Shown: positions 16,310 to 35,661, counted from the stretch's first letter. The stretch: DNA of 64,000 nucleotides from an uncultured Atribacterota bacterium (GCA_964433635.1 CAYSSG010000005.1:11295-75294); one strand, 5' to 3'. Notes: a model not told the origin generated them from the sequence alone. Numbers and translations: made by a program.

Positions 16310-16329
16310 ATAGAACGAGGTGATGAAAA

Positions 16330-16737: not shown

Positions 16738-16783
16738 AGAATAGAATTTTTTGATATAGTTTGAAGGAATGGTAATCACTGAT

Positions 16784-17236: not shown

Positions 17237-17636
17237 GAAATATTTCCCTTCTACGATGCATGTGATTTGGTTATTTCCATAATATAAGAATATCATAACA
17301 TAATTTTTAAAGAATAACGCCGATATCAGGTAGCTGAATGGGATAAAAATTTGCAGGAAAGTATAAAGAATTGTAATATGTTATTATTGAAGAGAATTTG
17401 ATCATATTTTTATCCTGTTTAAAACAAGTGAATGGGTATTTATCTGTATTGTACCAATAGGGTTAGTACATAAAATGAAACACAAAGAAGTGTCTGTTTG
17501 CTGTATACAAAATGCAACAAATAGACCGGAATGATCATCCTATCAACAAAGCATATCATTGTTAAGAAAAGTGTAAATAGATTTCAGGGGAGATAACGCC
17601 CCTCACAATACTGTTTTTAGGGGGAGGTATAGATCT

Positions 17637-18275: not shown

Positions 18276-18330
18276 CTTTGCGAATAATTATTATTGTTGT
18301 TGTTAAAATTGGAATTATATTTGAGTGTTA

Positions 18331-19047
18331 ATGAGAAAATACCATACAATTAAACATCATCGAAAGAATATACCGCAGCCTACCATCCATCGTTTGTCTT
18401 TATGTCTCAGGAGTTTGGAAACATGGATTGAAACAGAAGAAGGCAGGGAACGAGACACTATTTCTTCATCGGAAATTTCAGAGATTACAGGTATCCATTC
18501 CGATCAGATTCGTAAAGATCTTACCTATTTTGGAGAATTTGGGAAGAGAGGCATCGGGTATCCTGTTAAAGAGCTCATTACGGCATTAAAGCTTATATTA
18601 GGTTCAAGCAGGAAATGGGATATTGTGATAGCAGGTGCAGGGAATCTCGGAGAAGCCCTGGTTCGTTATAAAGGATTTCAAAAGAGAGGTTTTCATTTTA
18701 AGGCAATTTTTGATAATGAGCCATCTAAAATAGGTAAAGTATTTGCTGGTATTAAAATCAGACCTATAGGAGATATGGTAGATTACATCAGGAAAATGAA
18801 AGTCAAAGTAGGTATTATTGCTGTTCCCGCCAAGTCTGCTCAAGAGGTTACTGATTACATGATTGCCGGCGGCATTCAATCTATTTTAAATTTTGCTCCC
18901 GCTAATCTTAAATGTCCTGATGATGTCAGGATCAATTCGATTGATATTTCCATAGAACTTGAGAGACTGGTCTTTTTTTTAACTTCTGAACAAAAACAGA
19001 ATGGGAATATCAGGAAAAAATCCCTGAACTTTCCCTTAGATCTGTAA
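18331..19047 (+). CDS. rex: Redox-sensing transcriptional repressor Rex
   Basis: N-terminal winged helix (IPQPTIHRLSLCLRSL...DLTYFGEFGKRGIGYPV) and Rossmann NADH-sensing domain (IAGAGNLGEALV...IIAVPAKSAQEV...ILNFAP). ORF begins at GTG 18325; the ATG at 18331 is preferred. Confidence 0.85.
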   Translation: MRKYHTIKHHRKNIPQPTIHRLSLCLRSLETWIETEEGRERDTISSSEISEITGIHSDQIRKDLTYFGEFGKRGIGYPVKELITALKLILGSSRKWDIVIAGAGNLGEALVRYKGFQKRGFHFKAIFDNEPSKIGKVFAGIKIRPIGDMVDYIRKMKVKVGIIAVPAKSAQEVTDYMIAGGIQSILNFAPANLKCPDDVRINSIDISIELERLVFFLTSEQKQNGNIRKKSLNFPLDL

Positions 19048-19146: not shown

Positions 19147-19176
19147 TTGACATGCTCTTTGGATGTATGTTAAAAT
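19147..19176 (+). promoter_or_regulatory. SigmaA-type promoter (-35 TTGACA, extended -10 TGtTAAAAT)
   Basis: TTGACA at 19147-19152, 17-18 nt spacer, TGTTAAAAT at 19168-19176. Confidence 0.55.
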
Positions 19177-19302: not shown

Positions 19303-19650
19303 ATGAAAATCAATGACATTGTTACCATTTTAGATGCGGAAGTATTAACCGGGGAAGATTTTCTTAATCAGGAGATTGAAGAATTTGCCGTAAGTGATCT
19401 GTTAAGTGATGTCCTTGCTCTCAGCAAGGATAATTTTTTGTTATTAACAGGCTTAACGACACAGCAGGTGGTCAGAACAGCTGAAATTGCGGGAGGAATA
19501 GGAGTTGTCTTTGTGCGCGGAAAGACTCCCGAACAGGAAGCGATCGGTTTGGCACGTTCCCATCGCATACCTCTATTAATGACCACAAAGAAGGCTTTTG
19601 AAGCCTGCAAAGCCATTGTTGAGGCATTGAATAATCAAGAGAAGATATGA
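19303..19650 (+). CDS. DRTGG-domain protein
   Basis: 115 aa with a DRTGG-type fold (LLTGLTTQQVVRTAEIAGGIGVVFVRGK). Confidence 0.65.
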   Translation: MKINDIVTILDAEVLTGEDFLNQEIEEFAVSDLLSDVLALSKDNFLLLTGLTTQQVVRTAEIAGGIGVVFVRGKTPEQEAIGLARSHRIPLLMTTKKAFEACKAIVEALNNQEKI

Positions 19651-20585
19651 CCATATTACATTCTAGAGAAAAATTGACCTTGGCAAATGAGCTGATCTAT
19701 GAAATCAAAGTAAAAGATACCATGACCAAAGAGGTCATTTCTTTTAGCCAGAAAGCTACTTTTCGGGAAATACAGATGTCATTAAAGAAAAATAGAATAT
19801 CTGGTGTTCCCATTCTGGATGAAAAGAAGAATATTATTGGCATGATCAGCATCGACAATGTCATTACTGCCCTGGATGAAGGGTATGTGAATGAAGAAGT
19901 GAAGAGCTATATGACCAGGGATGTGATTACGATTCCTCAAAGTGATTCTCTGGTCTCCGCGATTAAAAAGTTTGAGCGGTACAAATACGGTAGGTTGCCG
20001 GTAACCAAAAATGCCCGCAGCAACATGATTGTGGGAATTTTAACCATGGGTGATATATTAAATCGCCTGTTGGAAAGCATCCAATCGATTGCGGAGAAGG
20101 TAGAAGATAAAGAAGCAAAAAATACACTGCTTTCAGACAAAATGGTTAAACAAACACAACAGAAAAACCTGCGTTTTGAGGTTAAAAAATCAGATTTTGA
20201 TAATGCAGGTAGCGTCGCCAGTATGATCCGGAATTATCTGCAAAAATCTGGCATTGATAAGCAAATCCTGAGAAGAGTAGCGATTGTCTGTTATGAGGCT
20301 GAGATGAACATCAGTATCCATTCCCTGGGTGGATATATTTCTATGGAAGTAGGTCAGGAGAATATTGCGATTACTGCTGTTGATTATGGGCCAGGTATTC
20401 CGGATGTAGAAGAGGCAATGAAACCGGGGTTTACCACTGCATCTGAACAGATCAGGGCTCTGGGATTTGGTGCAGGAATGGGCTTGCCTAATATCAAGAA
20501 GTGTTCAGACCATCTTGAGCTGGAGTCTTCTATGGAAACCGGTACCATTTTAAAAGCTGTTATTCGTTTAGGGGGACAAAGATGA
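19647..20585 (+). CDS. CBS-pair domain protein fused to GHKL ATPase (anti-sigma-factor-like Ser kinase)
   Basis: Two CBS motifs (ISGVPILDEKKNIIGMISIDNV; YGRLPVTKNARSNMIVGILTMGDIL). C-terminal HATPase_c (AVDYGPGIPDVEEAMKPGFTT...GFGAGMGL). Confidence 0.75.
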   Translation: MTILHSREKLTLANELIYEIKVKDTMTKEVISFSQKATFREIQMSLKKNRISGVPILDEKKNIIGMISIDNVITALDEGYVNEEVKSYMTRDVITIPQSDSLVSAIKKFERYKYGRLPVTKNARSNMIVGILTMGDILNRLLESIQSIAEKVEDKEAKNTLLSDKMVKQTQQKNLRFEVKKSDFDNAGSVASMIRNYLQKSGIDKQILRRVAIVCYEAEMNISIHSLGGYISMEVGQENIAITAVDYGPGIPDVEEAMKPGFTTASEQIRALGFGAGMGLPNIKKCSDHLELESSMETGTILKAVIRLGGQR

Positions 20586-20926
20586 AACTAAGTCAAATCA
20601 TAAGTCAATGTAATCTACAGAAAATAGTGTTTTGTGCTGATGATGACATCAAAGCAGGTTATTGTGGTGATTTAATGTCAGATGTTATCGCCAATGCTGC
20701 CAGCAGCAGTATCTGGATTACCATTCAGGCTCATAAGAACAGTATTGCAGTTGCCTTGATCAAGGACATACGGGCAATTGTTTTTACAAATAATGTGGAA
20801 GTAAACCAGGAATTGATTGAAAAAGCGAGAGAAGAGAACATTAATCTATTGAGAACTGAGAAGAATTCTTTTCAAATTTCAGGTTTGTTATACAAATTTT
20901 TGGAGGATCATTCTGAAAAAGATTGA
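20582..20926 (+). CDS. DRTGG-domain protein (second copy)
   Basis: 114 aa, similar fold to the 19303 gene. Overlaps the previous stop. Confidence 0.6.
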   Translation: MKLSQIISQCNLQKIVFCADDDIKAGYCGDLMSDVIANAASSSIWITIQAHKNSIAVALIKDIRAIVFTNNVEVNQELIEKAREENINLLRTEKNSFQISGLLYKFLEDHSEKD

Positions 20927-21659
20927 TTTACATATTCACTCTTCTCTTTCTGCCTGCGGGGAAAATATGATGTCCCCGCAAAGTATTCTAAAAAGGGCAG
21001 AGCAAAGTGGATTAAACTTAATTGCTGTCACTGATCATAATGCAGTTGCCCACTCGATCTTGATTAGTATGCTTAAAAAAGCAAGTTCGGTTAATGTTAT
21101 TTTTGGGGTTGAGTTGACTACCAGGGAAGAAATTCATTTATTAGGTTATTTTCCAGATGAATTCAGCATAAGAGAGATGGAGAAAAAGATAGACGACTCT
21201 CTGCCAAAAATAAAGAATAGATCTTCTTTCTTTGGAGACCAGCTCATCTATGACGAAAAAGAAGAAATCATTGAAATAGATGATATGCTAAGACAAAATG
21301 CTTTACAGGTAAGCATGGAGGAGCTGATTAATTTTATACATTCTCTGGGTGGAATCGCAATTCCGGCCCATATTAATAGAGATTATTGCAGTATAAAAAG
21401 CCAGATAGGGTTTTTAGATCCTCAAAGTGATTTTGATGCAGTTGAATTATCAAGATTTGAATGGATCAATAAGAGGTACAAAATAGGGGATCTACTGGAA
21501 GGATTTCCGGTAATGAGCGGTTCAGACAGTCATTTTTTGGAAGATATCGGAACATTTTTTTTGGAAGTGGAAGATGATAATCATATCATAAATTTTGATT
21601 CATTAAAAAATTTTCTAAGGAAGATCAAGATTGAAAAATATAGCGGACCATCTTTTTGA
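20913..21659 (+). CDS. PHP-domain metal-dependent phosphoesterase; probable non-canonical start
   Basis: Reading frame is open from 20853. The conserved PHP N-terminal His motif KIDLHIHSSLSACGE lies upstream of the first canonical start (ATG 20967). A GGAGGA SD at 20902-20907 is followed by CTG 20913 and AAA-AAG-ATT-GAT-TTA-CAT. Downstream: AVTDHNAV and further His/Asp ligands. Confidence 0.6.
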   Translation: MKKIDLHIHSSLSACGENMMSPQSILKRAEQSGLNLIAVTDHNAVAHSILISMLKKASSVNVIFGVELTTREEIHLLGYFPDEFSIREMEKKIDDSLPKIKNRSSFFGDQLIYDEKEEIIEIDDMLRQNALQVSMEELINFIHSLGGIAIPAHINRDYCSIKSQIGFLDPQSDFDAVELSRFEWINKRYKIGDLLEGFPVMSGSDSHFLEDIGTFFLEVEDDNHIINFDSLKNFLRKIKIEKYSGPSF

Positions 21660-22167
21660 TATTATAGAAAATTCGGTGAATGCCGGGGCAGATGAAGTGA
21701 TTGTAAAGATAGCTCACGCTAACAATCATTTTTTTTGCAGCATTTCTGATAATGGAAAAGGAATCAGCGGGCAGGAAGTATTAGATCCCTTTGTAACATC
21801 CAGAAAGACCAGAAGAGTTGGATTAGGTCTTCCTTTATTAAAAAGGGCAGCAGAAGATACCGGGGGATATTTAAATGTAAGGAGAATAGATAAAAACGGA
21901 GGAACTGCTCTTCAATTTAAAATGGACATGTCTCACATTGATGCCAAACCCTTTGGAGATTTGGCCAGGACTTTTTCAGACATCTTCTTTTCCTGGCCGG
22001 AAATTGTTCTAAAATTATTTATTGTAGAAAAAGATACAGAGGACCTTATTTTAGATTTTCAAGAATTACGCAACGAAATCGATGAAGGATTAAAAAATTA
22101 TATCAGCATAAGGAAACATATCAATGAGATTATCAAAAACGAGCTAAAAAAAATCAAGATTGTGTAA
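21631..22167 (+). CDS. GHKL-family ATP-binding protein (HATPase_c)
   Basis: IIENSVNAGADEV...ISDNGKGISG...GLGLPLLKRAAEDTGG. TTG start overlapping the PHP gene end. Confidence 0.65.
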   Translation: MKNIADHLFDIIENSVNAGADEVIVKIAHANNHFFCSISDNGKGISGQEVLDPFVTSRKTRRVGLGLPLLKRAAEDTGGYLNVRRIDKNGGTALQFKMDMSHIDAKPFGDLARTFSDIFFSWPEIVLKLFIVEKDTEDLILDFQELRNEIDEGLKNYISIRKHINEIIKNELKKIKIV

Positions 22168-22227: not shown

Positions 22228-22596
22228 ATGAAAAATTTAGAGGAACTGAAGATGATGCGGGAGAAAGTAAAGAAGGATTTAAAGCTTAGATCAGGGGAAC
22301 ATCGTGTCAAGATCGTAGTAGGAATGGGTAGTTGTGGAATAGCTGCTGGTGCCAGAGAAACAATGAACGAATTTTTGGATTTGATTGAAAAAAATAAAAA
22401 GACTGATATCATTGTTACCGCTTCGGGATGTTTTGGTTTTTGCGCTCAAGAACCTATGATTCATGTGTACGTAGAAGACAATAGACCGGTAACCTATCGC
22501 AATGTTGACGTAGAAGCAGCAAGGCTAATTTTTAACGACCATATTCTCAATAATAGAGTCGTAGAACAATATCTATTTTCAAAGGGGAAAAAATAA
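22228..22596 (+). CDS. Thioredoxin-like [2Fe-2S] ferredoxin (NuoE C-terminal-like small subunit)
   Basis: GMGSCGIAAGA...ASGCFGFCAQEP, the four-Cys pattern of Trx-like 2Fe-2S ferredoxins found in HydABC(D)-type operons. Confidence 0.7.
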   Translation: MKNLEELKMMREKVKKDLKLRSGEHRVKIVVGMGSCGIAAGARETMNEFLDLIEKNKKTDIIVTASGCFGFCAQEPMIHVYVEDNRPVTYRNVDVEAARLIFNDHILNNRVVEQYLFSKGKK

Positions 22597-23093
22597 TGAG
22601 TGAAACAACTGTCATTAAAAATGATGAATTGACTGTTGAAGAGAAATATCAGGAATTAAGAAGCTTCATTAGAGACAATAAAGATAAAAGGGGTTATTTG
22701 ATACCAATCCTGTACGAAGCACAGTCTTTATTTGGTTATCTGCCTTCAGAAGTCCAAAAATTCGTTGCCGAGGAGATGAATATCTCTGTGAGTGAAGTAT
22801 TTGGAGTCGTCACATTTTATTCTTATTTTAAAACCCAGCCTGTAGGTCGGCATACCATTACTATTTGTATGGGAACGGCTTGTTATGTAAGAGGGGCCAA
22901 AAAGATTCTAGAGGCATTACAGGATAAATTGGGTATAAAGATGGGCGAGACAACAGAAGATTTAAGATTTACGTTAGGAGAACAACGTTGTTTTGGATCA
23001 TGTGGTATGGCCCCGGTTATCATGATTGACAAAGAAGTCCATGGGCGGTTAACTCCCAGTAAATTAGATGCAATTTTAGAGAAATACAAATAG
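22596..23093 (+). CDS. NuoE-like [2Fe-2S] subunit (HydC-like)
   Basis: ICMGTACYVRGA...CFGSCGMAPVIMID, NuoE / 24 kDa subunit signature. Confidence 0.85.
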   Translation: MSETTVIKNDELTVEEKYQELRSFIRDNKDKRGYLIPILYEAQSLFGYLPSEVQKFVAEEMNISVSEVFGVVTFYSYFKTQPVGRHTITICMGTACYVRGAKKILEALQDKLGIKMGETTEDLRFTLGEQRCFGSCGMAPVIMIDKEVHGRLTPSKLDAILEKYK

Positions 23094-23112
23094 TCTAAGG
23101 AGTAGATTAATT

Positions 23113-26100
23113 ATGAATAATATAAGAATACAGCTTCTTCTGTGTCATGGTACTTCTTGCATGTCTAATGGTGCAGTAAGAGTAAGGGAAGCACTGGATG
23201 TGGCATTAAAAGAAGCTCACCTGGAAAAAGAAGTCGAAATCATTACTACGGGATGTATGGGAATATGCGAACTGGGACCTATTATGGTCGTTTACCCTGA
23301 TGGCGTTTTTTACCAACAGTTAAAACCGGAAGATGCCCGGGAAATTGTACAGGAACATATTTTAAAGGGTAGAGTTGTGCAACGGCTATTTTACAAAAAG
23401 CCAAGAACAGAAGAATTGGTAGCGATGATAGAGGACATTGATTTCTTCAAATTACAGAGGAAAATTGCTCGCAGAAACTGTGGAATTATAGATGTCAATA
23501 CCATTGATGATTATATCGGTGCAGATGGCTTTATGGCCTTAGGTAAGGTTTTGACAGAAATGACTTCTCAGGAAGTGATTGATGAGATCAAGAAATCAGG
23601 ATTAAGAGGCAGAGGCGGTGCCGGTTTTCCAACCGGATTAAAGTGGGATTTTGCGGCAAAAGCTTCTGGCAAACAAAAATATATTTTATGTAATGCAGAC
23701 GAAGGTGATCCTGGTGCCTTTATGGACCGCAGTATGCTGGAAGGAGATTCCTACAGTGTTTTAGAGGCTATGATGATTGGTGGCTATGCGATTGGTGCCA
23801 ACCAGGGATATATCTATGTGCGGGCTGAATATCCCCTTGCCATAGAAAGGTTGAAGATTGCCATCAAAGAGATGAGGAAACATCAGCTGCTGGGCAAGAA
23901 TATCCTGGGAGCCAGCTTTGACTTTGATGTAGAAATACGAATGGGAGCAGGTGCATTTGTTTGCGGTGAAGAAACGGCTTTAATGCGCTCTATAGAAGGC
24001 AAGAGAGGAGAACCCAGACCAAGACCGCCCTTCCCTGCTAATAAAGGATTATTTGAATCACCTACTGTTTTAAATAACGTGGAAACCCTGGCTAATATAC
24101 CTTATATCATTCTTTACGGAGCTGAGAATTATGCATCTGTGGGTACTGAAAAGAGTAAAGGAACAAAGATCTTTGCTCTTGCCGGAAATATCAACAATAC
24201 CGGCTTAATTGAAGTTCCCATAGGTATTACCTTAGGTGAAATTGTTTATAATATCGGCGGGGGGATCCCGGGAAATAAAAAATTCAAGGCTGTTCAGATC
24301 GGCGGACCATCCGGAGGTTGTATTCCTGCACAGCATCTGAATGCAATCGTTGATTATGAGACATTAAAAGAACTGGGCGCAATTATGGGCTCAGGCGGGC
24401 TGATTGTCATGGATGAAGATACCTGTATGGTTGATATTGCCCGTTATTTCATGGAATTTATTCAGGATGAGTCTTGTGGTAAATGTACTCCTTGTCGTGA
24501 AGGAACCAGGGTCATGCTGGAGATACTGACCAGGATTTGTGAAGGTAAAGGCAAGATGGAAGATCTGGACACCCTGGAAGAATTATCTTATCGAATTAAA
24601 GATACTGCTCTTTGTGGTTTAGGGCAAACTGCCCCGAATCCGGTTTTATCCACATTAAGATACTTTAGACATGAGTATATTGAACATATTAGAGATAAGA
24701 AATGTAGAGCAGGGGTTTGTGCAGAGCTAGTCTATGCACCCTGCACTAATTCCTGTCCGGCTTCAGTCAATGTTCCCGCTTATCTGGCGTACACCAAAGA
24801 AGGTCAATATGAAAAGGCTATGCAGGTACATTTAAGAACAAATCCTTTCCCGGCTGTATGTGGAAGAGTATGCCCTGCTTTCTGCGAAATCAGATGTCGA
24901 AGGAAGGACATTGATGATGCGATCAATATTCGTGCTGTCAAGAGATTTATGGCTGATCAGGTTGATAATTATATTGATTGTTTCCCGGAAAAAAATAGTA
25001 AAAATGGCAAGAAGGTTGCCATTATAGGCGGTGGCCCCTCCGGACTTTCTAATGCCTATTTCCTGACGATGTTAGGCTATGAAACCACAGTATTTGAAGC
25101 GCAACCAAAAGCAGGTGGAATGTTAACCTACGCTATCCCCTCATACCGTTTGCCAAAGGATATTGTGGAAAAAGAGATTCAGGCTTTGGTAGATTACGGA
25201 GTCAGGATACATACAAATACCATAATTGGAGAGGATATCACTTTAGATCAGTTGAGAAAAGAAGGTTATAAGGCATTCTATATTTCTGCTGGCGCTTGGG
25301 ATTGCATTATGCCTGAGATGGATAATTTAGATGATCCCAGAATTTTCAGCGGTTTGGAATTCCTGAATAAGTTCAATAGAAAAGAGAAGCTTGATATTGG
25401 TAAGGAGGTCATCGTTATCGGTGGTGGCAACTCTGCCATTGACGCTGCCAGAACTGCCAAGAGGCTTGGAGCAGAGGTTACAATCGTTTATCGAAGAACA
25501 AGAGAAGAAATGCCTGCCGATGAAGCTGAAATTAATGAAGCTGAAAGAGAAGGTATCAAAATTTCTCTGCTGCAGAATATAAAATCGGTGAAATCACAAA
25601 AAGATTACCTGGAAGTCGAGTTGGTGAATATGAAATTAGGAGATTATGATGCTTCTGGCCGGCGCAGACCTGTTGAAATCAGAGGATCTAATTTTATCAG
25701 GAAAATCGATTGTTTAATCTTATCTATCGGACAGAAACCTGCTATTTCAGATTTATTGAATCATGAAGAGATGACCCTGAATCGCGATCAGACGATTCCG
25801 ACTGAAAAAGGGATAACTAAAATAAAAGACATTTTTGCAGGTGGGGATGTGGCATTAGGTCCTGCTACTGTCGTTGAAGCGATAGGAGAGGCGCAGAATG
25901 CTGCGGAAGCGATTGATTTTTATCTGACTGAAAAGAAGAGAGTTTATCCTTGGAGATTGAAAGATCCCATTAACGTGGATTTTGATCCCGAAGCAGATCC
26001 GGTAGATTATGCACGTTCACAAGTCTGCCTCCTTCCTGTCCAGGAAAGAGGAGTTCATGACGAAGTTGAAAAGACTTGGAATAAAGAGACTGCCTGTCAT

Positions 26101-26142
26101 GAAGGCAGCAGATGCCTGCGTTGTGAATACCGAGAGGACTAA
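23113..26142 (+). CDS. NuoF-like FMN/NAD(H) flavoprotein fused to GltD/NfnB-like FAD/NAD(P)H oxidoreductase (1009 aa)
   Basis: N-terminal Trx-like 2Fe-2S domain (HGTSCMSNGA...GCMGICELGP). NuoF core (GLRGRGGAGFPTGLKW, ESCGKCTPCREGT). Two 4Fe-4S motifs (CTNSCPASV; CGRVCPAFCE). GltD-type dinucleotide folds (VAIIGGGPSGLS...; VIVIGGGNSAIDAARTAKRLGA). Confidence 0.8.
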   Translation: MNNIRIQLLLCHGTSCMSNGAVRVREALDVALKEAHLEKEVEIITTGCMGICELGPIMVVYPDGVFYQQLKPEDAREIVQEHILKGRVVQRLFYKKPRTEELVAMIEDIDFFKLQRKIARRNCGIIDVNTIDDYIGADGFMALGKVLTEMTSQEVIDEIKKSGLRGRGGAGFPTGLKWDFAAKASGKQKYILCNADEGDPGAFMDRSMLEGDSYSVLEAMMIGGYAIGANQGYIYVRAEYPLAIERLKIAIKEMRKHQLLGKNILGASFDFDVEIRMGAGAFVCGEETALMRSIEGKRGEPRPRPPFPANKGLFESPTVLNNVETLANIPYIILYGAENYASVGTEKSKGTKIFALAGNINNTGLIEVPIGITLGEIVYNIGGGIPGNKKFKAVQIGGPSGGCIPAQHLNAIVDYETLKELGAIMGSGGLIVMDEDTCMVDIARYFMEFIQDESCGKCTPCREGTRVMLEILTRICEGKGKMEDLDTLEELSYRIKDTALCGLGQTAPNPVLSTLRYFRHEYIEHIRDKKCRAGVCAELVYAPCTNSCPASVNVPAYLAYTKEGQYEKAMQVHLRTNPFPAVCGRVCPAFCEIRCRRKDIDDAINIRAVKRFMADQVDNYIDCFPEKNSKNGKKVAIIGGGPSGLSNAYFLTMLGYETTVFEAQPKAGGMLTYAIPSYRLPKDIVEKEIQALVDYGVRIHTNTIIGEDITLDQLRKEGYKAFYISAGAWDCIMPEMDNLDDPRIFSGLEFLNKFNRKEKLDIGKEVIVIGGGNSAIDAARTAKRLGAEVTIVYRRTREEMPADEAEINEAEREGIKISLLQNIKSVKSQKDYLEVELVNMKLGDYDASGRRRPVEIRGSNFIRKIDCLILSIGQKPAISDLLNHEEMTLNRDQTIPTEKGITKIKDIFAGGDVALGPATVVEAIGEAQNAAEAIDFYLTEKKRVYPWRLKDPINVDFDPEADPVDYARSQVCLLPVQERGVHDEVEKTWNKETACHEGSRCLRCEYRED

Positions 26143-26173
26143 TATTGAAAGAAAGGATTGAAATAGAATCAAA

Positions 26174-28945
26174 ATGAAAGATACAGTTGTAAAAAAGGAA
26201 AAAACAGCAATGCCAATGGTCCAGGTCATAATAGATGACAAAAAGGTAAGGGTGGAATCTGGCACAACAATCCTGGATGCAGCAACGAAGGCAGGTATAA
26301 AAATTCCCACACTATGCGCTATGCCGGAGATCAATCATTATCCGGGTTCTTGCCGCATGTGTGTCGTAGAAGTGGAAGGAATGCCATGCTTAGCTGCCTC
26401 CTGCGTTTATCCTGTTCAGGAAGGCATGGTAATCCATACGCATAGCGAAAGGGTCGTCAGAGCGCGTAGGGCAGTATTGGAATTGCTTCTCAATTCCCAT
26501 CCCCTTGATTGCATGACCTGTGAGAAGAATGGTGAATGCGACCTGCAGGATTTAGCATACGAATTGGGAATCAAGGAGTCCGGCTTTGGAAGATATGAAA
26601 AAAATCTTCCGATTGATGATAGCAATCCCTTCATCTTGAGAGATTTGAATAAATGTATTCTTTGCCGTAGATGTGTTGAGATATGCAATGAAATACAACA
26701 ATCCAGGGCAATTGGGATTGGCTTCCGAGGAAAAAATACCGAAGTCATTGCCGGATTAGGCAATCAATTAGGGCATGAGACAAAAATTACAATAGGCTCA
26801 GAAGAAAATCCTGATTACTCCAATTGCGTTTCTTGCGGACAATGCGTGGCGGTATGTCCTGTTGGCGCGTTAACTGATAAGGCAGCCGTGGGAAAAGGCA
26901 GAGCCTGGGAATTTGAAAAAGTTCATACGACCTGTAATTACTGTGGATGTGGATGTGGATTTGATTTGAACATTAAAGACGGAAAGGTGATTAAGGTTAC
27001 ATCAAATCCTGACAGCGTAGTGAACGGAATTAACCTCTGCGTTAAAGGACGTTTTGGTAATGACTATATTCACCGAAAAGACAGATTAACAACTCCTTTA
27101 ATCAGAAAAAATGGTAAATTGGAGCCCGCTTCCTGGGATGAGGCACTTCAATTAATCAGTGATAAATTTAAAGATATCAAAGCAGAAAGCGGTAAAGATA
27201 GTTTAGCGGTTCTTTCTTCAGCCAAGTGTACGAATGAAGAAAATTATCTGCTTATGAAATTTGCCAGGGCTGTATTGGGAACCAATAATGTTGACCATTG
27301 TGCCCGGCTTTGCCATTCGGCTACCGTTGCAGGTTTAGCTCAATCCTTTGGTAGTGGAGCCATGACCAATTCTATTAAGGAGATTGCCGACGCTTCGGTT
27401 ATCTATTTGACTGGTTCCAATACGACTGAAAATCATCCTATTATTGCTTTGGAAATAAAAAAAGCAGTCACTAAAAATGGAGCAAAACTAATTGTGGCTG
27501 ATCCTAGAGAAATAGAATTGGCAAAATATGCTGCTTTATGGTTAAGACAGAGACCGGGAACAGATGTAGCCCTGTTTAATGGCCTGATGAATGTCATTAT
27601 TACAGAGGGATTGGAAGATAAGGAATTTATTGAAGAAAGAACTGAAGATTATGAAAAAATGAAAGAAGTAGTTCTCAAGTATACCCCGGAAATCGTAGCA
27701 AAGATTACCGGGGTCCCTGCCGATGATATCAGAGAAGCAGCCAGGATTTATGCTGCAGGTCCCAGTACTTCTTTAATTTATTCGATGGGGATTACACAAC
27801 ACACCAGCGGTACAGATAATGTTCTTTCAACTGCTAATATAGCTATGTTAACCGGTAATGTAGGGAAGGAAAGTTCCGGAGTAAATCCCTTAAGAGGACA
27901 GAGTAATGTTCAGGGAGCTTGTGATATGGGCGCTTTGCCAAATGTGTATTCTGGTTATCAGGCAGTGGCAGATCCTGTGGCTCAGGAGAAGTTTTCTAAA
28001 GCCTGGCAGGCTGAATTATCAGGCAAGGTCGGATTGACAGTCGTTGAAATACTCAATGCTGCTTATGATGGCAAAGTTAGAGGGATATTTGTTATGGCAG
28101 AAAATCCGGCCATGTCAGATCCTGATTTAAACCATGCCCGGGAAGCTTTAAAGAAGACTGATTTTTTAGTCGTATCTGATATGTTTATGACTGAAACAGC
28201 TGAAATGGCGGATGTCGTATTGCCTGGTGTTAGTTTTGCTGAGAAGGATGGAACGATTACCAATACAGAGAGAAGAGTCCAAAGATTCCATAAAGCGATT
28301 GAACCAATAGGAGAGGCAAAACCGGAATGGCAGATCATCTGTGAACTGGCTCAGAAAATGGGATATAAGATGAACTATCATAGTCCTGCTGAAATTATGG
28401 AAGAAATTGCCCAACTAACCCCAATTTATGGAGGGATGTTCTATCCGAGACTGGAAAAAGAAGGTTTGCAATGGCCTTGTCCGGATACAAACCATCCCGG
28501 GACAAAATTCTTGCATAAGGATAAATTCAGCAGAGGAAAAGGAAAGTTCTTCCCGGTTGAATTCAGAGAGGCAGCAGAACTTCCTGATGATGAATATCCT
28601 CTGATTTTTACCACCGGAAGGGTATTGTATCATTTCCATACAGGTACAGTCACACGGAGATCTAAGGGACTGAACGAAGTATATAAAGAAGCATTGGTTG
28701 AAATCAGTCCCCAGGATGCCAGCCAATTAAGCATACAAGATGGTGAAATGGTAGAAGTTGCCTCCCGAAGAGGGAAGATCCAGGCAAAAGCGAAAGTAAC
28801 TGAAAAATCAGATAATGGTGTCGTATTCATGAGTTTCCATTTCCACGAAGCCGCCGCCAATTTATTAACCAATGCTGCACTTGATCCGGTCTCCAAGATA
28901 CCGGAATATAAAGTTTGTGCTGTAAAAGTGAAGAAGATATCTTAA
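26174..28945 (+). CDS. fdhA: Formate dehydrogenase catalytic subunit, Mo/W-bis-PGD, cysteine type, with NuoG-like N-terminal Fe-S domain
   Basis: N-terminal 2Fe-2S ferredoxin plus 4Fe-4S motifs. MopB domain TTCNYCGCGCGFD. Active-site segment HCARLCHSATVAGL aligns with E. coli FdhH CARV-U-HGPSVAG, with Cys in place of SeCys. No in-frame TGA. Confidence 0.85.
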   Translation: MKDTVVKKEKTAMPMVQVIIDDKKVRVESGTTILDAATKAGIKIPTLCAMPEINHYPGSCRMCVVEVEGMPCLAASCVYPVQEGMVIHTHSERVVRARRAVLELLLNSHPLDCMTCEKNGECDLQDLAYELGIKESGFGRYEKNLPIDDSNPFILRDLNKCILCRRCVEICNEIQQSRAIGIGFRGKNTEVIAGLGNQLGHETKITIGSEENPDYSNCVSCGQCVAVCPVGALTDKAAVGKGRAWEFEKVHTTCNYCGCGCGFDLNIKDGKVIKVTSNPDSVVNGINLCVKGRFGNDYIHRKDRLTTPLIRKNGKLEPASWDEALQLISDKFKDIKAESGKDSLAVLSSAKCTNEENYLLMKFARAVLGTNNVDHCARLCHSATVAGLAQSFGSGAMTNSIKEIADASVIYLTGSNTTENHPIIALEIKKAVTKNGAKLIVADPREIELAKYAALWLRQRPGTDVALFNGLMNVIITEGLEDKEFIEERTEDYEKMKEVVLKYTPEIVAKITGVPADDIREAARIYAAGPSTSLIYSMGITQHTSGTDNVLSTANIAMLTGNVGKESSGVNPLRGQSNVQGACDMGALPNVYSGYQAVADPVAQEKFSKAWQAELSGKVGLTVVEILNAAYDGKVRGIFVMAENPAMSDPDLNHAREALKKTDFLVVSDMFMTETAEMADVVLPGVSFAEKDGTITNTERRVQRFHKAIEPIGEAKPEWQIICELAQKMGYKMNYHSPAEIMEEIAQLTPIYGGMFYPRLEKEGLQWPCPDTNHPGTKFLHKDKFSRGKGKFFPVEFREAAELPDDEYPLIFTTGRVLYHFHTGTVTRRSKGLNEVYKEALVEISPQDASQLSIQDGEMVEVASRRGKIQAKAKVTEKSDNGVVFMSFHFHEAAANLLTNAALDPVSKIPEYKVCAVKVKKIS

Positions 28946-28984
28946 GAAAAATTAATTTCTATAATAAAAAAGGAGGAAATTGAA

Positions 28985-29881
28985 TTGAGTGCTGAAAAAG
29001 AAGTAGGACAAAAACAAAAAACAACGGATATTTTTACTCCCTGTAATGCTCCTGCAGCAGTTGCAAATGCATTTTGCGCGATTGGTCAAACGAAGTCTAA
29101 CCTTTCATTGACTAAAATGATTGTATTAGGTATCTTGGCGGGAGCTTATATTGCATTCGGTGCACAGCTTGCCACGATGGTTACCTATGATACAGCAAAA
29201 TATGTAGGAGACGGTATTTCTAAAATATTGTTTGGGAGTGTATTTTCTGTAGGCCTTATGTTGGTTGTAATTGCCGGTGCAGAGCTGTTCACAGGAAACA
29301 ATTTAATCGTCGTGGGGACCCTAAATGGCAATGTATCATTAGGAAAATTACTGAATAGCTGGGTCTGGATTTATGTTGCTAATTTTATTGGCTCACTTTT
29401 ACTTGTTTGGATTATGTATGCAACACAACTTTGGAAAACTGGTGATTTTGCAGTAGGTGCTAAAGCACTTTCTATTGCTAATGGTAAGGTAAATCTTGCT
29501 TGGGGAACAGCGATAGCAAGAGGCATTGCTTGTAACTGGTTAGTTTGTCTGGCAGTATGGTTAGCAGTTGCTGCGAAGGATGTCCCTGGAAAAATTTTTG
29601 GTATTTACTTCCCCATAATGGCTTTTGTAGCCAGTGGATTTGAGCATAGCATTGCTAATATGTATTTTGTTCCCATGGGCATTATGCTTAAGAATGACGC
29701 ATCGGTAGTCGCCGCCGCTGGTCTTGCTGATAAGTTAAGCAATCTTAATTGGGGAGCATTTATATTCAATAATTTACTTCCAGTTACAATTGGTAATATA
29801 ATTGGTGGAGCATTCTTTGTGGCAACCTTATATTGGTTTGTTTACTTAAGGGATTCCAAATATTTAGTTGACAAAAGTTAA
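28985..29881 (+). CDS. focA: Formate/nitrite transporter family (FocA-like) channel
   Basis: 298 aa with 6 TM helices. FNT signatures (ELFTGNNL, GNIIGG). TTG start 8 nt after AGGAGG. Confidence 0.8.
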   Translation: MSAEKEVGQKQKTTDIFTPCNAPAAVANAFCAIGQTKSNLSLTKMIVLGILAGAYIAFGAQLATMVTYDTAKYVGDGISKILFGSVFSVGLMLVVIAGAELFTGNNLIVVGTLNGNVSLGKLLNSWVWIYVANFIGSLLLVWIMYATQLWKTGDFAVGAKALSIANGKVNLAWGTAIARGIACNWLVCLAVWLAVAAKDVPGKIFGIYFPIMAFVASGFEHSIANMYFVPMGIMLKNDASVVAAAGLADKLSNLNWGAFIFNNLLPVTIGNIIGGAFFVATLYWFVYLRDSKYLVDKS

Positions 29882-29889
29882 TTTATTCT

Positions 29890-29939
29890 AAGAAAGAGGA
29901 GTTATATCCAGAAATGAAAAGATATAACTCCTCTTTCTT
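29890..29939 (+). terminator. Long perfect hairpin after focA
   Basis: AAGAAAGAGGAGTTATATC-12 nt loop-GATATAACTCCTCTTTCTT (19-bp stem). No strong U-tract follows. Confidence 0.45.
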
Positions 29940-30023
29940 ATCGATCTAACGAGATGAAAAAGAATATGCCCTAATCATAGAAAATCATCAAAACAATCTT
30001 ATGTTATTTAGATATGTGTATTA

Positions 30024-30662
30024 ATGGATAGCTTGAAAAAAAATATTCCGATATCTATTATAATATTGGCTGGTGGGAAAAGCAGTAGAATTGGTTTGAA
30101 TCGGGACAAGGGTCAAATGAAATTTTCAGGTATCAACCTGATCGATCGAGTCATCTCTAATATCACCTCTTTTCGCGATGTGTCAGAAAAGGATATCATC
30201 ATTGTAGGGCCGAAAGAAAAATTTTCCCATTTTAATAAAGTTGTGGAAGATATCTATCCCCTGAAAGGGCCACTGGGAGGTATGTATTCCGGTTTACAGT
30301 CTTCTTTGACTTTTTTCAATCTAGTGATTGGCTATGACATGCCTTTTATTGAAATAAGGTTAATCCAATACATGATACAAAACACCAATAGCTATGATGT
30401 GGTTATTCCAAACCATGATCAGGGTTTGTTGGAACCATTATGTGCGATTTACAGTAAAAATTGTTTGCCCATCATGAAAAAAAATATCCAGATCGGCAAA
30501 CTGGCAGTGAGAAGTATATTTCCTTATCTGAAAGTAAGGATGATCACAGAGACAGAAATTAAAGAATACGATCCGGAGATGATTTCCTTCTTTAATATTA
30601 ACTACCGGGATGATTTCAGCAGAGCAGAAGAGATTTCCCGAAGGAGGAGAATGGAAAAATGA
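30024..30662 (+). CDS. mobA: Molybdenum cofactor guanylyltransferase MobA
   Basis: LAGGKSSRIG...DKGQMKF N-terminal nucleotide-binding motif. 212 aa. Confidence 0.75.
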   Translation: MDSLKKNIPISIIILAGGKSSRIGLNRDKGQMKFSGINLIDRVISNITSFRDVSEKDIIIVGPKEKFSHFNKVVEDIYPLKGPLGGMYSGLQSSLTFFNLVIGYDMPFIEIRLIQYMIQNTNSYDVVIPNHDQGLLEPLCAIYSKNCLPIMKKNIQIGKLAVRSIFPYLKVRMITETEIKEYDPEMISFFNINYRDDFSRAEEISRRRRMEK

Positions 30663-31435
30663 TGCGAATTAATAAAGGAGTACAGGTTAATCTTCTGCGT
30701 ATCGAGGGAAAAAAGAGAATAAGATCTTCAGATTTGGTTGCCAGAGAAACTGAACTTACCATCTTTGCAAATAAAAAAAGGATCATCACTCTGAATTGCA
30801 GTCCGGGTCACTATCGTTACCTGGGAGTAGGATTTCTTTTTACTGCAGGCATGATAAACAAAAAGGAAGATATATTCTCAATGAAGACGAATAGAAAATC
30901 TATATCTATTGAAATGAAGGACCTTAGCTTACCTGAAAACGGAGCCGTTGTTTCTTCCAGTCATTGGCTGGAGATTCAACAGCCTTCACTGTTGCGGAGC
31001 AAAACCATTTCTGTAAAGGATAAAAAAGTCGGAATCCGATCCTGTACAATATACTCTTTGATGACAGATATGCAGGAAAAGGCTGTTTTTTTTAAGCAAA
31101 GCGGAGGGGTTCACAGTTGTGCATTAAGTGAGTCTGATGGTTCCATCATTTTATTCTGCGAAGATATAAGCCGTTACAATACGATTGACCGGATATTGGG
31201 AGAAGCGCTGCTGAAGAATATCAGCATCATTGATAAGGTCATGTTGACTTCCTGTCGCATTACTTCAGGTATTATGAAGAAGATAGTCATGAGCCATATA
31301 TCGATTATCATTTCCCGGTCAGCTCCAACCGATGCTGCTATTCGTCTGGCTCATCAAAAAGGTATTACCCTGGTAGGGTTTGTCCGGGGAGAAAGAATGA
31401 ATATCTATACCCATCCTGCACGCATCGAAGATTAA
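30659..31435 (+). CDS. fdhD: Formate dehydrogenase accessory sulfurtransferase FdhD
   Basis: 258 aa. GGVHSCAL and C-terminal ISRSAPTDAAIRLAHQKGITLVGFVRGERMNIYTHP, typical of FdhD. Confidence 0.8.
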   Translation: MMRINKGVQVNLLRIEGKKRIRSSDLVARETELTIFANKKRIITLNCSPGHYRYLGVGFLFTAGMINKKEDIFSMKTNRKSISIEMKDLSLPENGAVVSSSHWLEIQQPSLLRSKTISVKDKKVGIRSCTIYSLMTDMQEKAVFFKQSGGVHSCALSESDGSIILFCEDISRYNTIDRILGEALLKNISIIDKVMLTSCRITSGIMKKIVMSHISIIISRSAPTDAAIRLAHQKGITLVGFVRGERMNIYTHPARIED

Positions 31436-31655: not shown

Positions 31656-32123
31656 ATGACTGAGAGAATTGTATTATCTATAGATCCAGGAAGAAAAAAA
31701 TGTGGACTTGCAGTTGTTGATACCCGGTTACAGTTGATAGCCGGGGAAATTGTGGGCACTGAGCAATTGGTTAATCAGGTAAAGCGTTATTTAGAACGTT
31801 ATTCGATTGATTGTATATTAATTGGCAGTGGAACCAATTGCGGGGAAATCATGAATTCAATCAGACAGAGGTTCCCTGATTCTATGTTGATTGAGGTTAC
31901 TGAAAAGGACTCCACTATGCTGGCCAGAAAACGATATTTTGATTATTATCCCCCGACTGGGTTTCTGAAAATACTACCTGTAAGTCTGCGTGTTCCGCCT
32001 CGTCCCTATGATGATTTTGCTGCCTTAGTGATTGCTGAGCGGTATTTTCAGATTCATAAAAAGGGTGACTGTAAAAATGAACCATTTATGATTAATCATA
32101 ATCAAAGTCAAAGTAATGATTAG
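31656..32123 (+). CDS. Hypothetical RNase-H-fold (RuvC/YqgF-like) protein
   Basis: N-terminal IVLSIDPGRKKCGLAVVD resembles the RuvC/YqgF catalytic strand. ORF opens at TTG 31641; ATG 31656 is preferred. Low-confidence family call. Confidence 0.4.
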   Translation: MTERIVLSIDPGRKKCGLAVVDTRLQLIAGEIVGTEQLVNQVKRYLERYSIDCILIGSGTNCGEIMNSIRQRFPDSMLIEVTEKDSTMLARKRYFDYYPPTGFLKILPVSLRVPPRPYDDFAALVIAERYFQIHKKGDCKNEPFMINHNQSQSND

Positions 32124-32802
32124 TTCTCAGGAGGAGAGTCTATTGACGAAAGTTAGAGTATTTTCCAATATTATGAAGAGTAACGAAGATATGGCAGCAA
32201 AAAACAGGCAAATGTTCAGTCAATGCCGTATACCGGTCATCAATATCATGAGCTCGCCTGGGTCAGGCAAGACCAGTTTGCTGGAAAAGACCATCGAAAG
32301 ACTTGTTCAGAAAATCAGAATGGCTGTTTTAGAGGGGGATCTACAGACAGATCGTGATGCCCAACGTATAAGTCAATTTCCTGTTCAGGTAGCCCAGATC
32401 AATACAGATGGTGCCTGCCATTTAGATGCCAATATGGTAAATAAGGCATTATCAGCCTTTGATTTAAGTCAGGTGGATCTTTTTTTCATAGAAAATGTGG
32501 GCAATTTAGTATGTCCGGCTGGATTTGATCTGGGAGAAAATTTTCGGGTTAATCTGGTAAGTATTCCTGAGGGGGATGACAAGGTCATTAAATACCCAGT
32601 GATTTTTAGAAAATGTGATGTTTTATTAATTAATAAGATAGACTTACTGCCCTATGTGCAATTTGACATAACGCGCTTAAGAAAAGAAGCCCTGGACATC
32701 AAATCCGATATGAACATTTTTGAGATTTCCTGCCTGACCGGTAAAGGCCTGGAGGATTGGTTTGATTGGATTGCAGCAATAACAGGGGGGAAAAGTATAT
32801 AG
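32116..32802 (+). CDS. hypB: Hydrogenase nickel-incorporation GTPase HypB
   Basis: P-loop SSPGSGKTSLLE, ENVGNLVCP switch region. ATG overlaps the previous stop. Alternative TTG 32144 follows an AGGAGG. Confidence 0.85.
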   Translation: MISSQEESLLTKVRVFSNIMKSNEDMAAKNRQMFSQCRIPVINIMSSPGSGKTSLLEKTIERLVQKIRMAVLEGDLQTDRDAQRISQFPVQVAQINTDGACHLDANMVNKALSAFDLSQVDLFFIENVGNLVCPAGFDLGENFRVNLVSIPEGDDKVIKYPVIFRKCDVLLINKIDLLPYVQFDITRLRKEALDIKSDMNIFEISCLTGKGLEDWFDWIAAITGGKSI

Positions 32803-33087
32803 TATAACGTATACCGTATCACGAGAAAATACATTGAGAATAGTCGAGAGTCATATAAGATTTACGGGAAATATGAATCAAATTACATAACCTACTAAAT
32901 TAATTTTCAATGATGAAATGGTTGCATCAATAGTGTATTGATTCAAATATTGAAGTATCAATAAAACAAACAGATCAGAAATTTTTTTAATTTACATTGA
33001 AGTTTTTCTTATTAAAACGGTATACGATATACGTAATACGGTATACAAAAAGGAGTTTTCCTTAAATTTGCACTTGGTGGTTGAACA

Positions 33088-35427: not shown

Positions 35428-35445
35428 AAGTAGAGGTATATTTCC

Positions 35446-35661
35446 ATGTGTCTGGCTATTCCCGGTAAAGTGATCAGAATCATTGATTCCGAACAAGGGG
35501 AAGTACTCCTGGGAGGAATTAAGAAGATAGTAAGATTAGAACTCTTGTCCGAAGTGAATGAGGGTGATTATGTCCTTATTCATGCCGGTTATGCCATTAC
35601 CAGAATCAATGCCCGGGAGGCGGATGAGATTAATCGCGCCTGGAAGGAGGTTCAGTCTTGA
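35446..35661 (+). CDS. hypC: Hydrogenase assembly chaperone HypC
   Basis: MCLAIPGKV N-terminus. 71 aa. Confidence 0.85.
   Translation: MCLAIPGKVIRIIDSEQGEVLLGGIKKIVRLELLSEVNEGDYVLIHAGYAITRINAREADEINRAWKEVQS

Follow-up and report, generated by a model that had tools for sequence, protein, structure and literature searches.

A HydB-like NuoF subunit with a Stn-type GltD module, encoded beside a predicted Cys-type formate dehydrogenase in an uncultured Atribacterota bacterium

We analyzed 64,000 nucleotides of DNA from an uncultured Atribacterota bacterium (GCA_964433635.1, CAYSSG010000005.1:11295-75294; this whole stretch, numbered from its first letter, is referred to as the window), in which positions 22228-31435 hold an operon for a predicted formate dehydrogenase (FDH) whose NuoF-like subunit is fused to a GltD-type module with flavin adenine dinucleotide (FAD) and NADPH sites. 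The GltD module occupies the place of the C-terminal domain with which HydB proteins reduce ferredoxin. Our preferred reading, to which we give about an even chance, is that the operon encodes a Rex-controlled, cytoplasmic, Cys-type FDH or CO2 reductase of the HydABC-like (Bfu) family, which would link CO2/formate to both NAD(H) and NADP(H) and would have no canonical ferredoxin exit.

The fused subunit and its two halves

The operon comprises seven closely packed, co-directional genes on the + strand (Table 1); open reading frame (ORF) calling placed them at exactly the coordinates given in an earlier note on this DNA, and the Pfam and NCBIfam profiles that we used to assign domains to the window proteins bore out the gene-by-gene reading of that note, including its proposal that the third gene product joins NuoF to GltD. 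In this 1009-aa product, the Pfam domains are thioredoxin-like (residues 6-81), Complex1_51K (159-330), SLBB, NADH_4Fe-4S (441-525), Fer4_20 (532-618) and Pyr_redox_2 (633-927), and the reading frame contains no internal stops. A GGAG-type ribosome-binding site precedes the fusion ORF, the start of nuoE shares 1 nt with the stop codon of the preceding 122-aa ORF, and mobA and fdhD overlap by 4 nt. As a promoter and terminator scan of 17.2-33.2 kb gave counts no higher than those in shuffled controls, the limits of the operon are drawn from gene spacing alone.

The NuoF half is most similar to the HydB subunits of bifurcating enzymes, as the likeness to HydABC-type enzymes claimed in the earlier note would predict. 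Among solved chains, residues 5-540 matched best the NiFe-HydB of A. mobile (7t2r_B, E = 2.6e-237) and the HydB of A. woodii (7q4v_B, E = 2.9e-233), whereas the match to non-bifurcating FdsB of NAD-dependent FDHs was far weaker (6tg9_B, E = 1.3e-113), as was that to NuoF of complex I; identity to the solved bifurcating HydB chains is 50-68%. The four Cys of the N-terminal thioredoxin-like domain are invariant in 45 aligned fusion sequences, and the ligands of cluster B1 (Cys 455, 458, 461 and 501) and the glycine-rich loops of the flavin mononucleotide (FMN)/NADH site are invariant in the fusion homologues. The motif that follows the B1 domain, HIRDKKCRAGVC, is common to the HydB proteins of A. 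woodii, T. kivui and A. mobile and to C. saccharolyticus NfnB (7q4v_B, 7t2r_B, 9bov_B, 8a6t_B), and its pattern, HIRDKKCxAGxC, is that of bifurcating HydB; from section 9 of PMC11829005, this motif would represent the Zn (B2) site.

Alignments with HydB stop at approx. residue 540 of the fusion, and the GltD module starts at the same point. At this position, canonical relatives carry a tail of approx. 66 residues with a Fer4 dicluster; neither Pfam nor the HydB alignments revealed a Fer4 dicluster (B3/B4) domain, one of the features of the Bfu family, in the fusion of the window. In HydB, the C-terminal domain carries clusters B3 and B4, and cryo-electron microscopy has placed the low-potential path from the B1-FMN-C1 site through B3 and B4 to ferredoxin (PMC11829005). 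A bifurcating formate:NAD(P)+/ferredoxin enzyme had been suggested for this operon; the nucleotide part of this suggestion agrees with our data, but its ferredoxin leg is doubtful because the HydB C-terminal 2×[4Fe-4S] domain is absent, with GltD in its place.

The sequence of the GltD half assigns it to the Stn/Nfn-Bfu type. The best solved matches of fusion residues 542-1005 were NfnA of T. sibiricus (9n5u_A, E = 1.8e-111), NfnA of C. saccharolyticus (9bov_A, E = 8e-105) and StnC of S. ovata (8oh5_C, E = 2.5e-90), ahead of NfnL (E = 3.8e-86) and of true GltD (approx. 1e-60). The FAD-proximal cluster of these proteins has three Cys ligands, to which C548, C587 and C591 correspond in the alignment; the fourth ligand of this A7/C7-like cluster would be K610, opposite K170 of StnC and a Lys in each of the two NfnA chains, whereas P. 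furiosus NfnL has Glu. In StnC, this Lys is strictly conserved and essential, and the Lys type is associated with non-bifurcating NADPH entry, as opposed to the Glu type of bifurcating NfnL (PMC10482914). The second GltD cluster (A6/C6-like) is probably bound by C544 and C595 together with C1001 and C1004, and R679 aligns with R239 of StnC, near the FAD. Moreover, the GGGNSA sequence (GxGxxA) and the R794-R795 pair, invariant in the 45 aligned fusions, represent motifs that have been taken as markers of NADP(H) (PMC7483475, PMC8965080).

Fusions with the same domain order are widespread. A search of a 5.8-billion-protein collection, of which the best 120 matches were considered, returned proteins of approx. 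1000-1020 aa with an identical domain set in 120 of 120 cases (58-94% identity), so that the orthologous fusions looked for number at least 100; named sources among these matches were Atribacterota/Caldatribacteriota, Lentisphaerota/Victivallales and Verrucomicrobiota. A look-up of the identical protein returned no record, and the relatives at 70-94% identity carry the annotation Atribacterota/Caldatribacteriota. About 10 full-length representatives, plus fragments, were left in a library clustered at 50% identity, and across the 45 aligned sequences neither the junction nor any predicted cofactor ligand varies. Among species-representative genomes, a scan picked up approx. 20 loci with full-length copies, which belong to Nitrospirota, Armatimonadota, Clostridia, Halanaerobiales, Syntrophales/Smithella, Desulfobacterales, Brocadiia and others. 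In a fold search of chains solved up to April 2026, in which each half was also re-matched separately, no chain spanned both halves.

Some relatives differ in architecture. In a related metagenome-assembled genome (UBA4082; L013, 8809-11800) the fusion is split into ORFs of 620 and 370 aa, as the frame changes near residue 610; the gene probably contains an error of sequencing or assembly or is a pseudogene. A distant homologue of 1130 aa (P0180) retains a Fer4 dicluster domain after the GltD module, and two unnamed proteins of 650 aa (P0257 and P0259) join the NuoF [4Fe-4S] domain to GltD and are without the FMN domain. In a Desulfobacterales locus (L011, 2818-11033), a 695-aa SfrB-like GltD protein and a 972-aa SfrA-like MopB protein with a C-terminal NuoE domain are encoded directly upstream of a NuoF-GltD fusion. 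A derivation of SfrB-type NADPH subunits from a truncated fusion was considered and could not be established; the SfrB-like protein of this locus aligns to the fusion from residue 542 onward only, and its N-terminus is an unrelated FeS/Fer4 region.

FdhA, the small subunits and the control of the operon

FdhA scored 909.6 bits on TIGR01591, against a curated cut-off of 666.25, and matched FdsA-type chains over its full length (9wxb_B and 6tg9_A; for 6tg9_A, E = 7.8e-219 over residues 16-919). Its Pfam domains are Fer2_4, NADH-G_4Fe-4S_3, Fer4 and MopB, with no Pyr_redox domain, and no twin-arginine signal is visible in its sequence. The N-terminus holds the ligands of a [2Fe-2S] cluster (Cys 48/60/63/77), of a His109-type [4Fe-4S] cluster and of two more [4Fe-4S] clusters, while the MopB domain has its own [4Fe-4S] cluster (Cys 254/257/261/289). 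With HCARLCH at residues 375-381 and no in-frame TGA in fdhA, the enzyme is of the Cys type, as had been noted before; Cys380 is followed by His381, Arg574 is encoded at 27893-27895, and Cys380 aligns with the unknown-residue (X) position of the solved chain 9t1s_L. We take the equivalents of Cys380, His381 and Arg574 in E. coli FdhH to be Sec140 (selenocysteine, Sec), His141 and Arg333. With Cys380-His381-Arg574 in place and FdhD and MobA encoded in the operon, FdhA looks catalytically complete from its sequence, and the FocA, MobA and FdhD genes are consistent with formate/CO2 as the substrate, as previously proposed.

Both Sec and Cys forms of the fusion-FdhA architecture exist; the FdhA orthologue of a deltaproteobacterium (L014, 11439-14138) has an in-frame TGA (CARL*H) at the position of Cys380. 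No tRNA-Sec, which a Cys enzyme does not need, is present among the six tRNAs of the window, four of which (Lys, Glu, Val, Thr) form a cluster at 47817-48280.

The product of the first ORF had been described as a thioredoxin-like 2Fe-2S ferredoxin; it is thioredoxin-like, but it appears to be an HndB-like small protein with three Cys rather than a ferredoxin. This 122-aa protein had no Pfam match, and its sole NCBIfam matches were sub-threshold, to thioredoxin-like ferredoxins (fdxn_Clost, E = 1.2e-9); the best solved matches were the N-terminal domains of StnB (8oh5_B, E = 8e-16) and NfnB (9n5u_B). Three Cys, not four, are conserved across approx. 60 homologues, and the protein is kept beside nuoE/nuoF in approx. 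60 loci. As it also accompanies ordinary hydABC loci, it is best regarded as an HndB-like accessory subunit and not as a free ferredoxin; its metal content is uncertain. Gly replaces the residue that corresponds to the first Cys of the N-terminal domain of the fusion, a pattern also found in the N-terminal domain of S. ovata StnB. The NuoE-like subunit carries the [2Fe-2S] cysteines 91, 96, 132 and 136.

Upstream of the operon, the palindrome TTGTGATATTTTTCACAA lies 96 nt ahead of the ATG at 19303, between rex and the first gene of a block of accessory genes and just 3' of the best promoter-like match. When the window was scored with an 18-bp pattern that we take to be the Rex consensus, TTGTGATATTTTTCACAA was the single match with up to 2 mismatches, where 0.56 would be expected by chance. 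A form with a 6-nt spacer (TTGTGAA-N6-TTCACAA) and a 16-nt core gave no meaningful matches, and it was the form with the 4-nt spacer that was confirmed. At four related loci, L081, L084, L086 and L087, rex is found in the same position and a Rex box adjoins it (at 4122, 4073, 4812 and 4563, respectively). The putative Rex box suggests NADH/NAD+-responsive control and a role of the operon in the disposal of reducing equivalents. The block of DRTGG, CBS and HATPase genes is kept upstream of the fusion in Atribacterota and Lentisphaerota loci and is of the type that precedes hydABC operons; its 230-aa ORF product is PHP-like in relatives.

A complete Mbh-type membrane [NiFe]-hydrogenase with Mrp-like subunits is encoded at 8678-16737, and hydrogenase genes, which include HypA, HycI (- strand), HypB-like, HypF, HypD and HypE-like genes, flank the FDH operon (8082-17296 and 32116-37916); the adjacency of Mbh/Hyp genes to the FDH operon is conserved in Atribacterota relatives. 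We found no support for the idea that the FDH and Mbh form a two-part route from formate to H2, as FdhA has a NuoG-type N-terminus and NuoEF partners and not a link of the formate-hydrogenlyase type; in the published interpretation of JS1 genomes (PMC6776118), FDH and Mbh are electron sinks that operate in parallel.

Table 1. Features of the FDH operon and its upstream region (window positions)
Feature	Position	Strand	Basis or details
rex, Rex-family redox-sensing repressor	18325..19047	+	Pfam Put_DNA-bind_N + CoA_binding
Candidate sigma-70-like promoter, TTGACA-18-TAAAAT (11/12)	19147..19176	+	Best match of region; total such sites not above chance
Rex operator-like palindrome, TTGTGATATTTTTCACAA	19190..19207		One mismatch to TTGTGAA-N4-TTCACAA
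Five accessory/regulatory genes: DRTGG, CBS+HATPase, DRTGG, 230-aa ORF, HATPase	19303..22167	+	Pfam
HndB-like small thioredoxin-like protein, 122 aa	22228..22596	+	Three conserved Cys (36, 68, 72)
NuoE/HoxE/BfuC-like subunit, 165 aa	22596..23093	+	PF01257, E = 3e-53; NCBIfam HoxE/NuoE families
BfuB/HydB-like NuoF fused to Stn-type GltD module, 1009 aa	23113..26142	+	Pfam, NCBIfam, homologues, PDB matches
Fusion: N-terminal thioredoxin-like domain, cluster B5 position	23113..23400	+	PF01257, residues 6-81; Cys 11, 16, 48, 52
Fusion: NuoF core, FMN/NADH site (GLRGRGGAGFPTG...) and [4Fe-4S] B1	23497..24690	+	TIGR01959, residues 129-526; Complex1_51K, NADH_4Fe-4S
Fusion: HIRDKKCRAGVC motif (H525, C531, C536)	24685..24720	+	Residue-by-residue alignment; fusion junction comes after
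Fusion: GltD-type 2×[4Fe-4S] domain	24739..24966	+	Pfam Fer4_20; alignment to Csac NfnA, T. sibiricus NfnA, S. ovata StnC
Fusion: FAD and NADPH Rossmann domains	25009..25893	+	Pfam Pyr_redox_2; GGGPSG at 639, GGGNSA at 770, YRRT 793-796
Fusion: C-terminal CxxC (C1001, C1004)	26113..26124	+	Aligns with RCLxC motif of NfnA/StnC; invariant in 45 sequences
FdhA, 923 aa, NuoG-like N-terminus and MopB domain	26174..28945	+	TIGR01591, Pfam, PDB matches
Codon TGC, Cys380 at selenocysteine position	27311..27313	+	Alignments; L014 orthologue has TGA here
FocA-type formate channel	28985..29881	+	PF01226, E = 8e-82; TIGR00790 above cut-off
MobA-like molybdenum cofactor guanylyltransferase	30024..30662	+	Pfam NTP_transf_3; NCBIfam MobA families below cut-off
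FdhD sulfurtransferase	30659..31435	+	PF02634, E = 4e-60; TIGR00129, 172.7 bits vs. cut-off 140.9

Gene order, the proposed enzyme and its alternatives

The fused subunit is not specific to FDH, and its partner in most lineages is an [FeFe]-hydrogenase; in six loci (L002, L005, L006, L009, L017 and L019) a group-A [FeFe]-hydrogenase (Fe_hyd_lg_C plus SSU) directly follows the fusion. FdhA directly follows the fusion in the window, in L001 (85% identity), in L084/85 (94%), an arrangement found on at least 19 contigs, and in L014. In a neighbour-joining tree of the NuoF halves (a distance tree with no support values), L014 grouped with the Syntrophales and Smithella fusions, apart from the clade of the window, which suggests that the pairing of fusion and FDH arose at least twice. 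Although labelled Bacteroidales, the contig L001 (4864 bp) carries nuoE, the fusion and fdhA with 76-88% identity to the window; it probably belongs to Atribacterota and was mis-binned.

Three other Atribacterota loci (L013, L081 and L086; 70-77% identity) share the surroundings of the operon (i.e., Mbh, HycI, rex and the DRTGG/CBS/HATPase genes), and carry a second NuoE, a short NuoF of approx. 547 aa without the C-terminal domain, HydA and an ECF S-component inserted between the fusion and FdhA. Exactly NuoE2, NuoF2, HydA and ECF are missing from the lineage of the window when it is compared with these loci. This lineage has thus lost its short NuoEF set along with HydA and has kept the fused set beside FdhA, which we regard as the strongest evidence at hand for a joint function of the fused set and FdhA. 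The order small protein, NuoE, fusion, NuoE2, short NuoF and [FeFe]-hydrogenase is itself recurrent (L013, 7926-19295; L081, 7122-19057; L086, 8080-21051; L087, 8125-15567; also L003, L007 and L012), and is followed in Atribacterota by the ECF S-component, FdhA and FocA.

Ligands are conserved for the FMN/NADH site, B1, the N-terminal 2Fe-2S cluster, the 2Fe-2S cluster of NuoE, the two GltD clusters, the FAD/NADPH sites, and the five Fe-S clusters and pterin site of FdhA. As all of these are conserved, the simplest reading is one complex that links CO2/formate with NAD(H) and NADP(H), and the coupling to both nucleotides that had been proposed before is also the best reading of the conserved motifs. 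We favor a ferredoxin-independent enzyme because GltD stands at the usual ferredoxin exit and is of the NADPH-entry (Lys) type. The complex would consist of FdhA as the NuoG-like catalytic subunit, with molybdenum or tungsten as the catalytic metal, the NuoE-like [2Fe-2S] protein, the HndB-like small protein and, as a HydB-like flavoprotein, the fusion, whose Stn/Nfn-Bfu-type module for NADP(H) and FAD would take over from the ferredoxin-reducing C-terminal domain. Within FdhA, electrons would move between the pterin site and the five Fe-S clusters, and from these to the [4Fe-4S]-FMN centre of the fused subunit with its NAD(H) site; a second branch would lead through the two GltD clusters to the FAD and the NADP(H) site. 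The in vivo direction would most likely be towards formate, i.e., a rise in NADH/NAD+ would cause Rex to release the operon, NADH and NADPH would be re-oxidised as CO2 is reduced, and formate would exit via FocA. We infer from sequence the composition of this four-protein complex, the use of both nucleotides, the independence from ferredoxin, the direction and any energetic coupling of the nucleotide half-reactions.

Under physiological conditions, the potentials of NADH, NADPH and ferredoxin are approx. -280 mV, -380 mV and -500 mV, respectively (PMC9304861), so that joint oxidation of NADH and NADPH averages approx. -330 mV. By a Nernst estimate at approx. 0.3 bar CO2, joint oxidation could support up to approx. 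100 µM formate, and NADH alone a few µM, which would provide a rationale for coupling in a syntrophic fermenter. It is tempting to speculate further, albeit with low confidence, that, at the Bfu bifurcation site, the low-potential partner is NADP(H) and not ferredoxin. On this view, the enzyme would confurcate NADH and NADPH to reduce CO2 without ferredoxin (or would be the corresponding hydrogenase, where that is the partner), and the gap of approx. 100 mV between the NADPH and NADH couples would drive the re-oxidation of NADH onto CO2 or protons; this architecture, with its active FDH, would also be a relative that could have given rise to the Stn/NfnABC transhydrogenases, in which the FDH domain is dead.

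Several points weigh against the NAD(H)- and NADP(H)-linked, ferredoxin-independent enzyme that we prefer. The AlphaFold2 model of the fused subunit, with a predicted template modelling score of 0.57 and a poorly modelled NuoF half, leaves the placement of the GltD clusters relative to FMN, B1 and the NuoE cluster unfixed. Ferredoxin could still bind to FdhA, as has been reported for Fdh3A of T. onnurineus (PMC8965080), or, in the manner of NfnL, at the GltD clusters, and the Fer4 dicluster of P0180 indicates that not every member of the family has lost the ferredoxin-type domain. Two Lentisphaerota loci (L082/L083, 7119-11036) encode the small protein, NuoE and the fusion with no downstream NuoG-like catalytic gene, and L003, L007, L012 and L087 have two NuoEF sets and one HydA only within the flanks read; the fused module may thus work alone or with a distant partner in the former, and might generally work alone or in larger assemblies. 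In L082/L083, a divergent NuoE and a canonical NuoF are encoded upstream of the trio.

One alternative, which we regard as possible although improbable, is a ferredoxin-dependent bifurcating FDH (Fdh-Bfu), in which formate would reduce NAD+ and ferredoxin, NADP(H) would serve as an additional entry or exit, and ferredoxin would dock at the GltD cluster pair or elsewhere. The NuoF half bears every other bifurcation mark of BfuB (i.e., the N-terminal 4-Cys domain, B1 and the HydB motif), but the B3/B4 domain, which is the ferredoxin route of all solved Bfu enzymes, is missing. The two homologous clusters of NfnL form the path to ferredoxin (PMC10482914), and ferredoxin was guessed to bind the glutamate-synthase domain of a fused archaeal HydB (Cell 2024; PMC11216029); the GltD module of the window, however, has the Stn-type Lys and not the Glu of ferredoxin-reducing NfnL. 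JS1 genome papers call the enzyme an electron-bifurcating FDH (PMC6776118) and the ferredoxin-dependent Mbh is encoded next door, but the operon itself has no ferredoxin gene, and its small protein is common to ordinary HydABC loci and nearest to the N-terminal domains of BfuB.

In another reading, which appears unlikely, the trio of small protein, NuoE and fusion would be an NADH:NADP+ transhydrogenase in its own right that happens to be encoded beside fdhA, and FdhA would act alone or with another partner. The Lentisphaerota trio without a downstream catalytic subunit, the several loci where the trio precedes a complete short-NuoEF/HydA set, and the presence of both nucleotide sites in the fused protein with Fe-S clusters between them are all consistent with such a module. 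On the other hand, FdhA has the NuoG-type N-terminus that docks on NuoEF modules in FdsABG and HydABC, and the operon offers no other NuoEF; HydA comes directly after the fusion in six loci with no second NuoEF set; the adjacency of fusion and FdhA arose in two separate clades; and NuoE2F2 and HydA disappeared jointly, which left the fusion set with FdhA.

We give comparably little credence to an uncoupled FDH of dual specificity, for which NAD(H) and NADP(H) would be independent alternatives with no fixed stoichiometry and which would equilibrate the two pools through a transhydrogenase side activity. Both nucleotide sites look intact, formate (E0' approx. -420 mV; Table 1 of PMC9304861) is able to reduce either nucleotide without coupling, and the known NADP-dependent FDHs with a GltD/NfnL-type subunit are non-bifurcating (PMC8965080; PMC13040438). 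However, the window enzyme keeps the full set of BfuB features of the bifurcating type (4-Cys N-terminal domain, HydB-type motif and HndB-like partner) and not a stripped-down form, and an uncoupled enzyme would dissipate the disequilibrium between NADPH and NADH. Finally, an assembly or frameshift artefact that joined two genes, which the earlier note had named as grounds for giving up its reading, can be rejected in spite of the split gene of L013, given the uninterrupted ORF, more than 100 full-length homologues that stem independently from many phyla and samples, the approx. 10 representatives that survive clustering at 50% identity, and the invariant junction.

Comparison with known systems

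One earlier paper noted a HydB fused to a glutamate-synthase domain, in hybrid hydrogenases of archaea (PMC11216029), the HydDB rules implicitly allow proteins with NuoF and GltD domains (PMC5037454), and an electron-bifurcating FDH and Mbh have already been inferred for JS1 Atribacteria (PMC6776118). Our literature search, which covered the papers on Atribacterota isolates incompletely, found no description of an FDH in which the C-terminal domain of BfuB is replaced by a Stn-type GltD, and in the literature searched there was no biochemical or structural study of any NuoF-GltD fused subunit. If both nucleotide sites are used, formate/CO2 would be tied directly to the pools of both NADH and NADPH, in a phylum that is widespread in the subsurface and lives close to the thermodynamic limits, and models of electron sinks would change for JS1 Atribacteria and for anaerobes that pair the fused subunit with a hydrogenase. 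If the enzyme is instead an uncoupled FDH of dual specificity, it would be one more modular variant of a known family. A natural BfuB with a covalent NADP reductase in place of the ferredoxin domain would also provide a test of the exit of low-potential electrons from the Bfu site, and a Cys-type, selenium-independent, NAD(P)H-driven CO2 reductase would be an attractive target for biotechnology.

Among NAD-linked enzymes, FdsABG of Rhodobacter capsulatus (6TG9) and Cupriavidus necator (6VW7) resembles the window enzyme in its FdsA-like FdhA and its NuoE- and NuoF-like partners; it differs in that the NuoF half described here is nearer to HydB than to FdsB and carries extra N-terminal and GltD modules, and Pfam found no FdsD-like gene among the seven ORFs of the operon. 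SfrB2/SfrA2-FdhF3 of Moorella thermoacetica (PMC13040438) and Fdh3 of Thermococcus onnurineus (PMC8965080) likewise wire an FDH to a GltD-family FAD/NADPH module, with an Arg-Arg pair at the 2'-phosphate position that corresponds to R794-R795 of the fusion; Fdh3A of T. onnurineus is, moreover, of the Cys type and adjoins a formate transporter. Unlike these FDHs, which have a separate NADP subunit and no NuoF or NuoE, the window enzyme has both nucleotide sites on one polypeptide. The same kind of fused subunit occurs in the archaeal hybrid [FeFe]/[NiFe] hydrogenases, whose HydB has a glutamate-synthase domain (PMC11216029), and as an orthologue (50-68% identity in the NuoF half) in the six bacterial fused-HydB [FeFe]-hydrogenase loci listed above; in both cases the partner is a hydrogenase, whereas here it is an FDH.

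The closest parallels are found within the Bfu family, the features of which are present in the window enzyme (i.e., FMN/NADH site plus B1, a domain at the B5 site, the His/Cys motif, a NuoE-like BfuC and a NuoG-like BfuA) except for B3/B4. Fdh-Bfu (PMC9304861), represented by a Type 1 enzyme predicted for Carboxydothermus hydrogenoformans and by HylABC-FdhF2 of Gottschalkia acidurici, which has been purified, shares with it the core of NuoE-like and HydB-like subunits, a NuoG-like subunit with a pterin site, a thioredoxin-like domain at the N-terminus and, behind the B1 domain, the HydB-type motif. Here, by contrast, a 470-residue GltD module with FAD and NADPH sites replaces the B3/B4 domain, and FdhA uses Cys where the G. 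acidurici enzyme contains Se. Nfn-Bfu/StnABC (8OH5, 9BOV, 9N5U) has the most similar GltD (E = 1.8e-111 to 2.5e-90), with the Lys ligand, the FAD Arg and the RCLxC motif, and also combines a core of the BfuBC type with an FDH-type MopB domain. In those complexes, the NuoG-like subunit contains GltD as an insertion, the FDH-like domain has lost the pterin site (PMC11829005), and NADPH is the sole third substrate. In the window, by contrast, GltD forms the C-terminus of the NuoF-like subunit, and FdhA has the score of a true FDH and an intact Cys-His-Arg set; B3/B4, retained in the BfuB of Nfn-Bfu/StnABC, are absent from the fusion. Overall, the enzyme is best filed as one that is built from known parts and that combines features of Fdh-Bfu and Nfn-Bfu.

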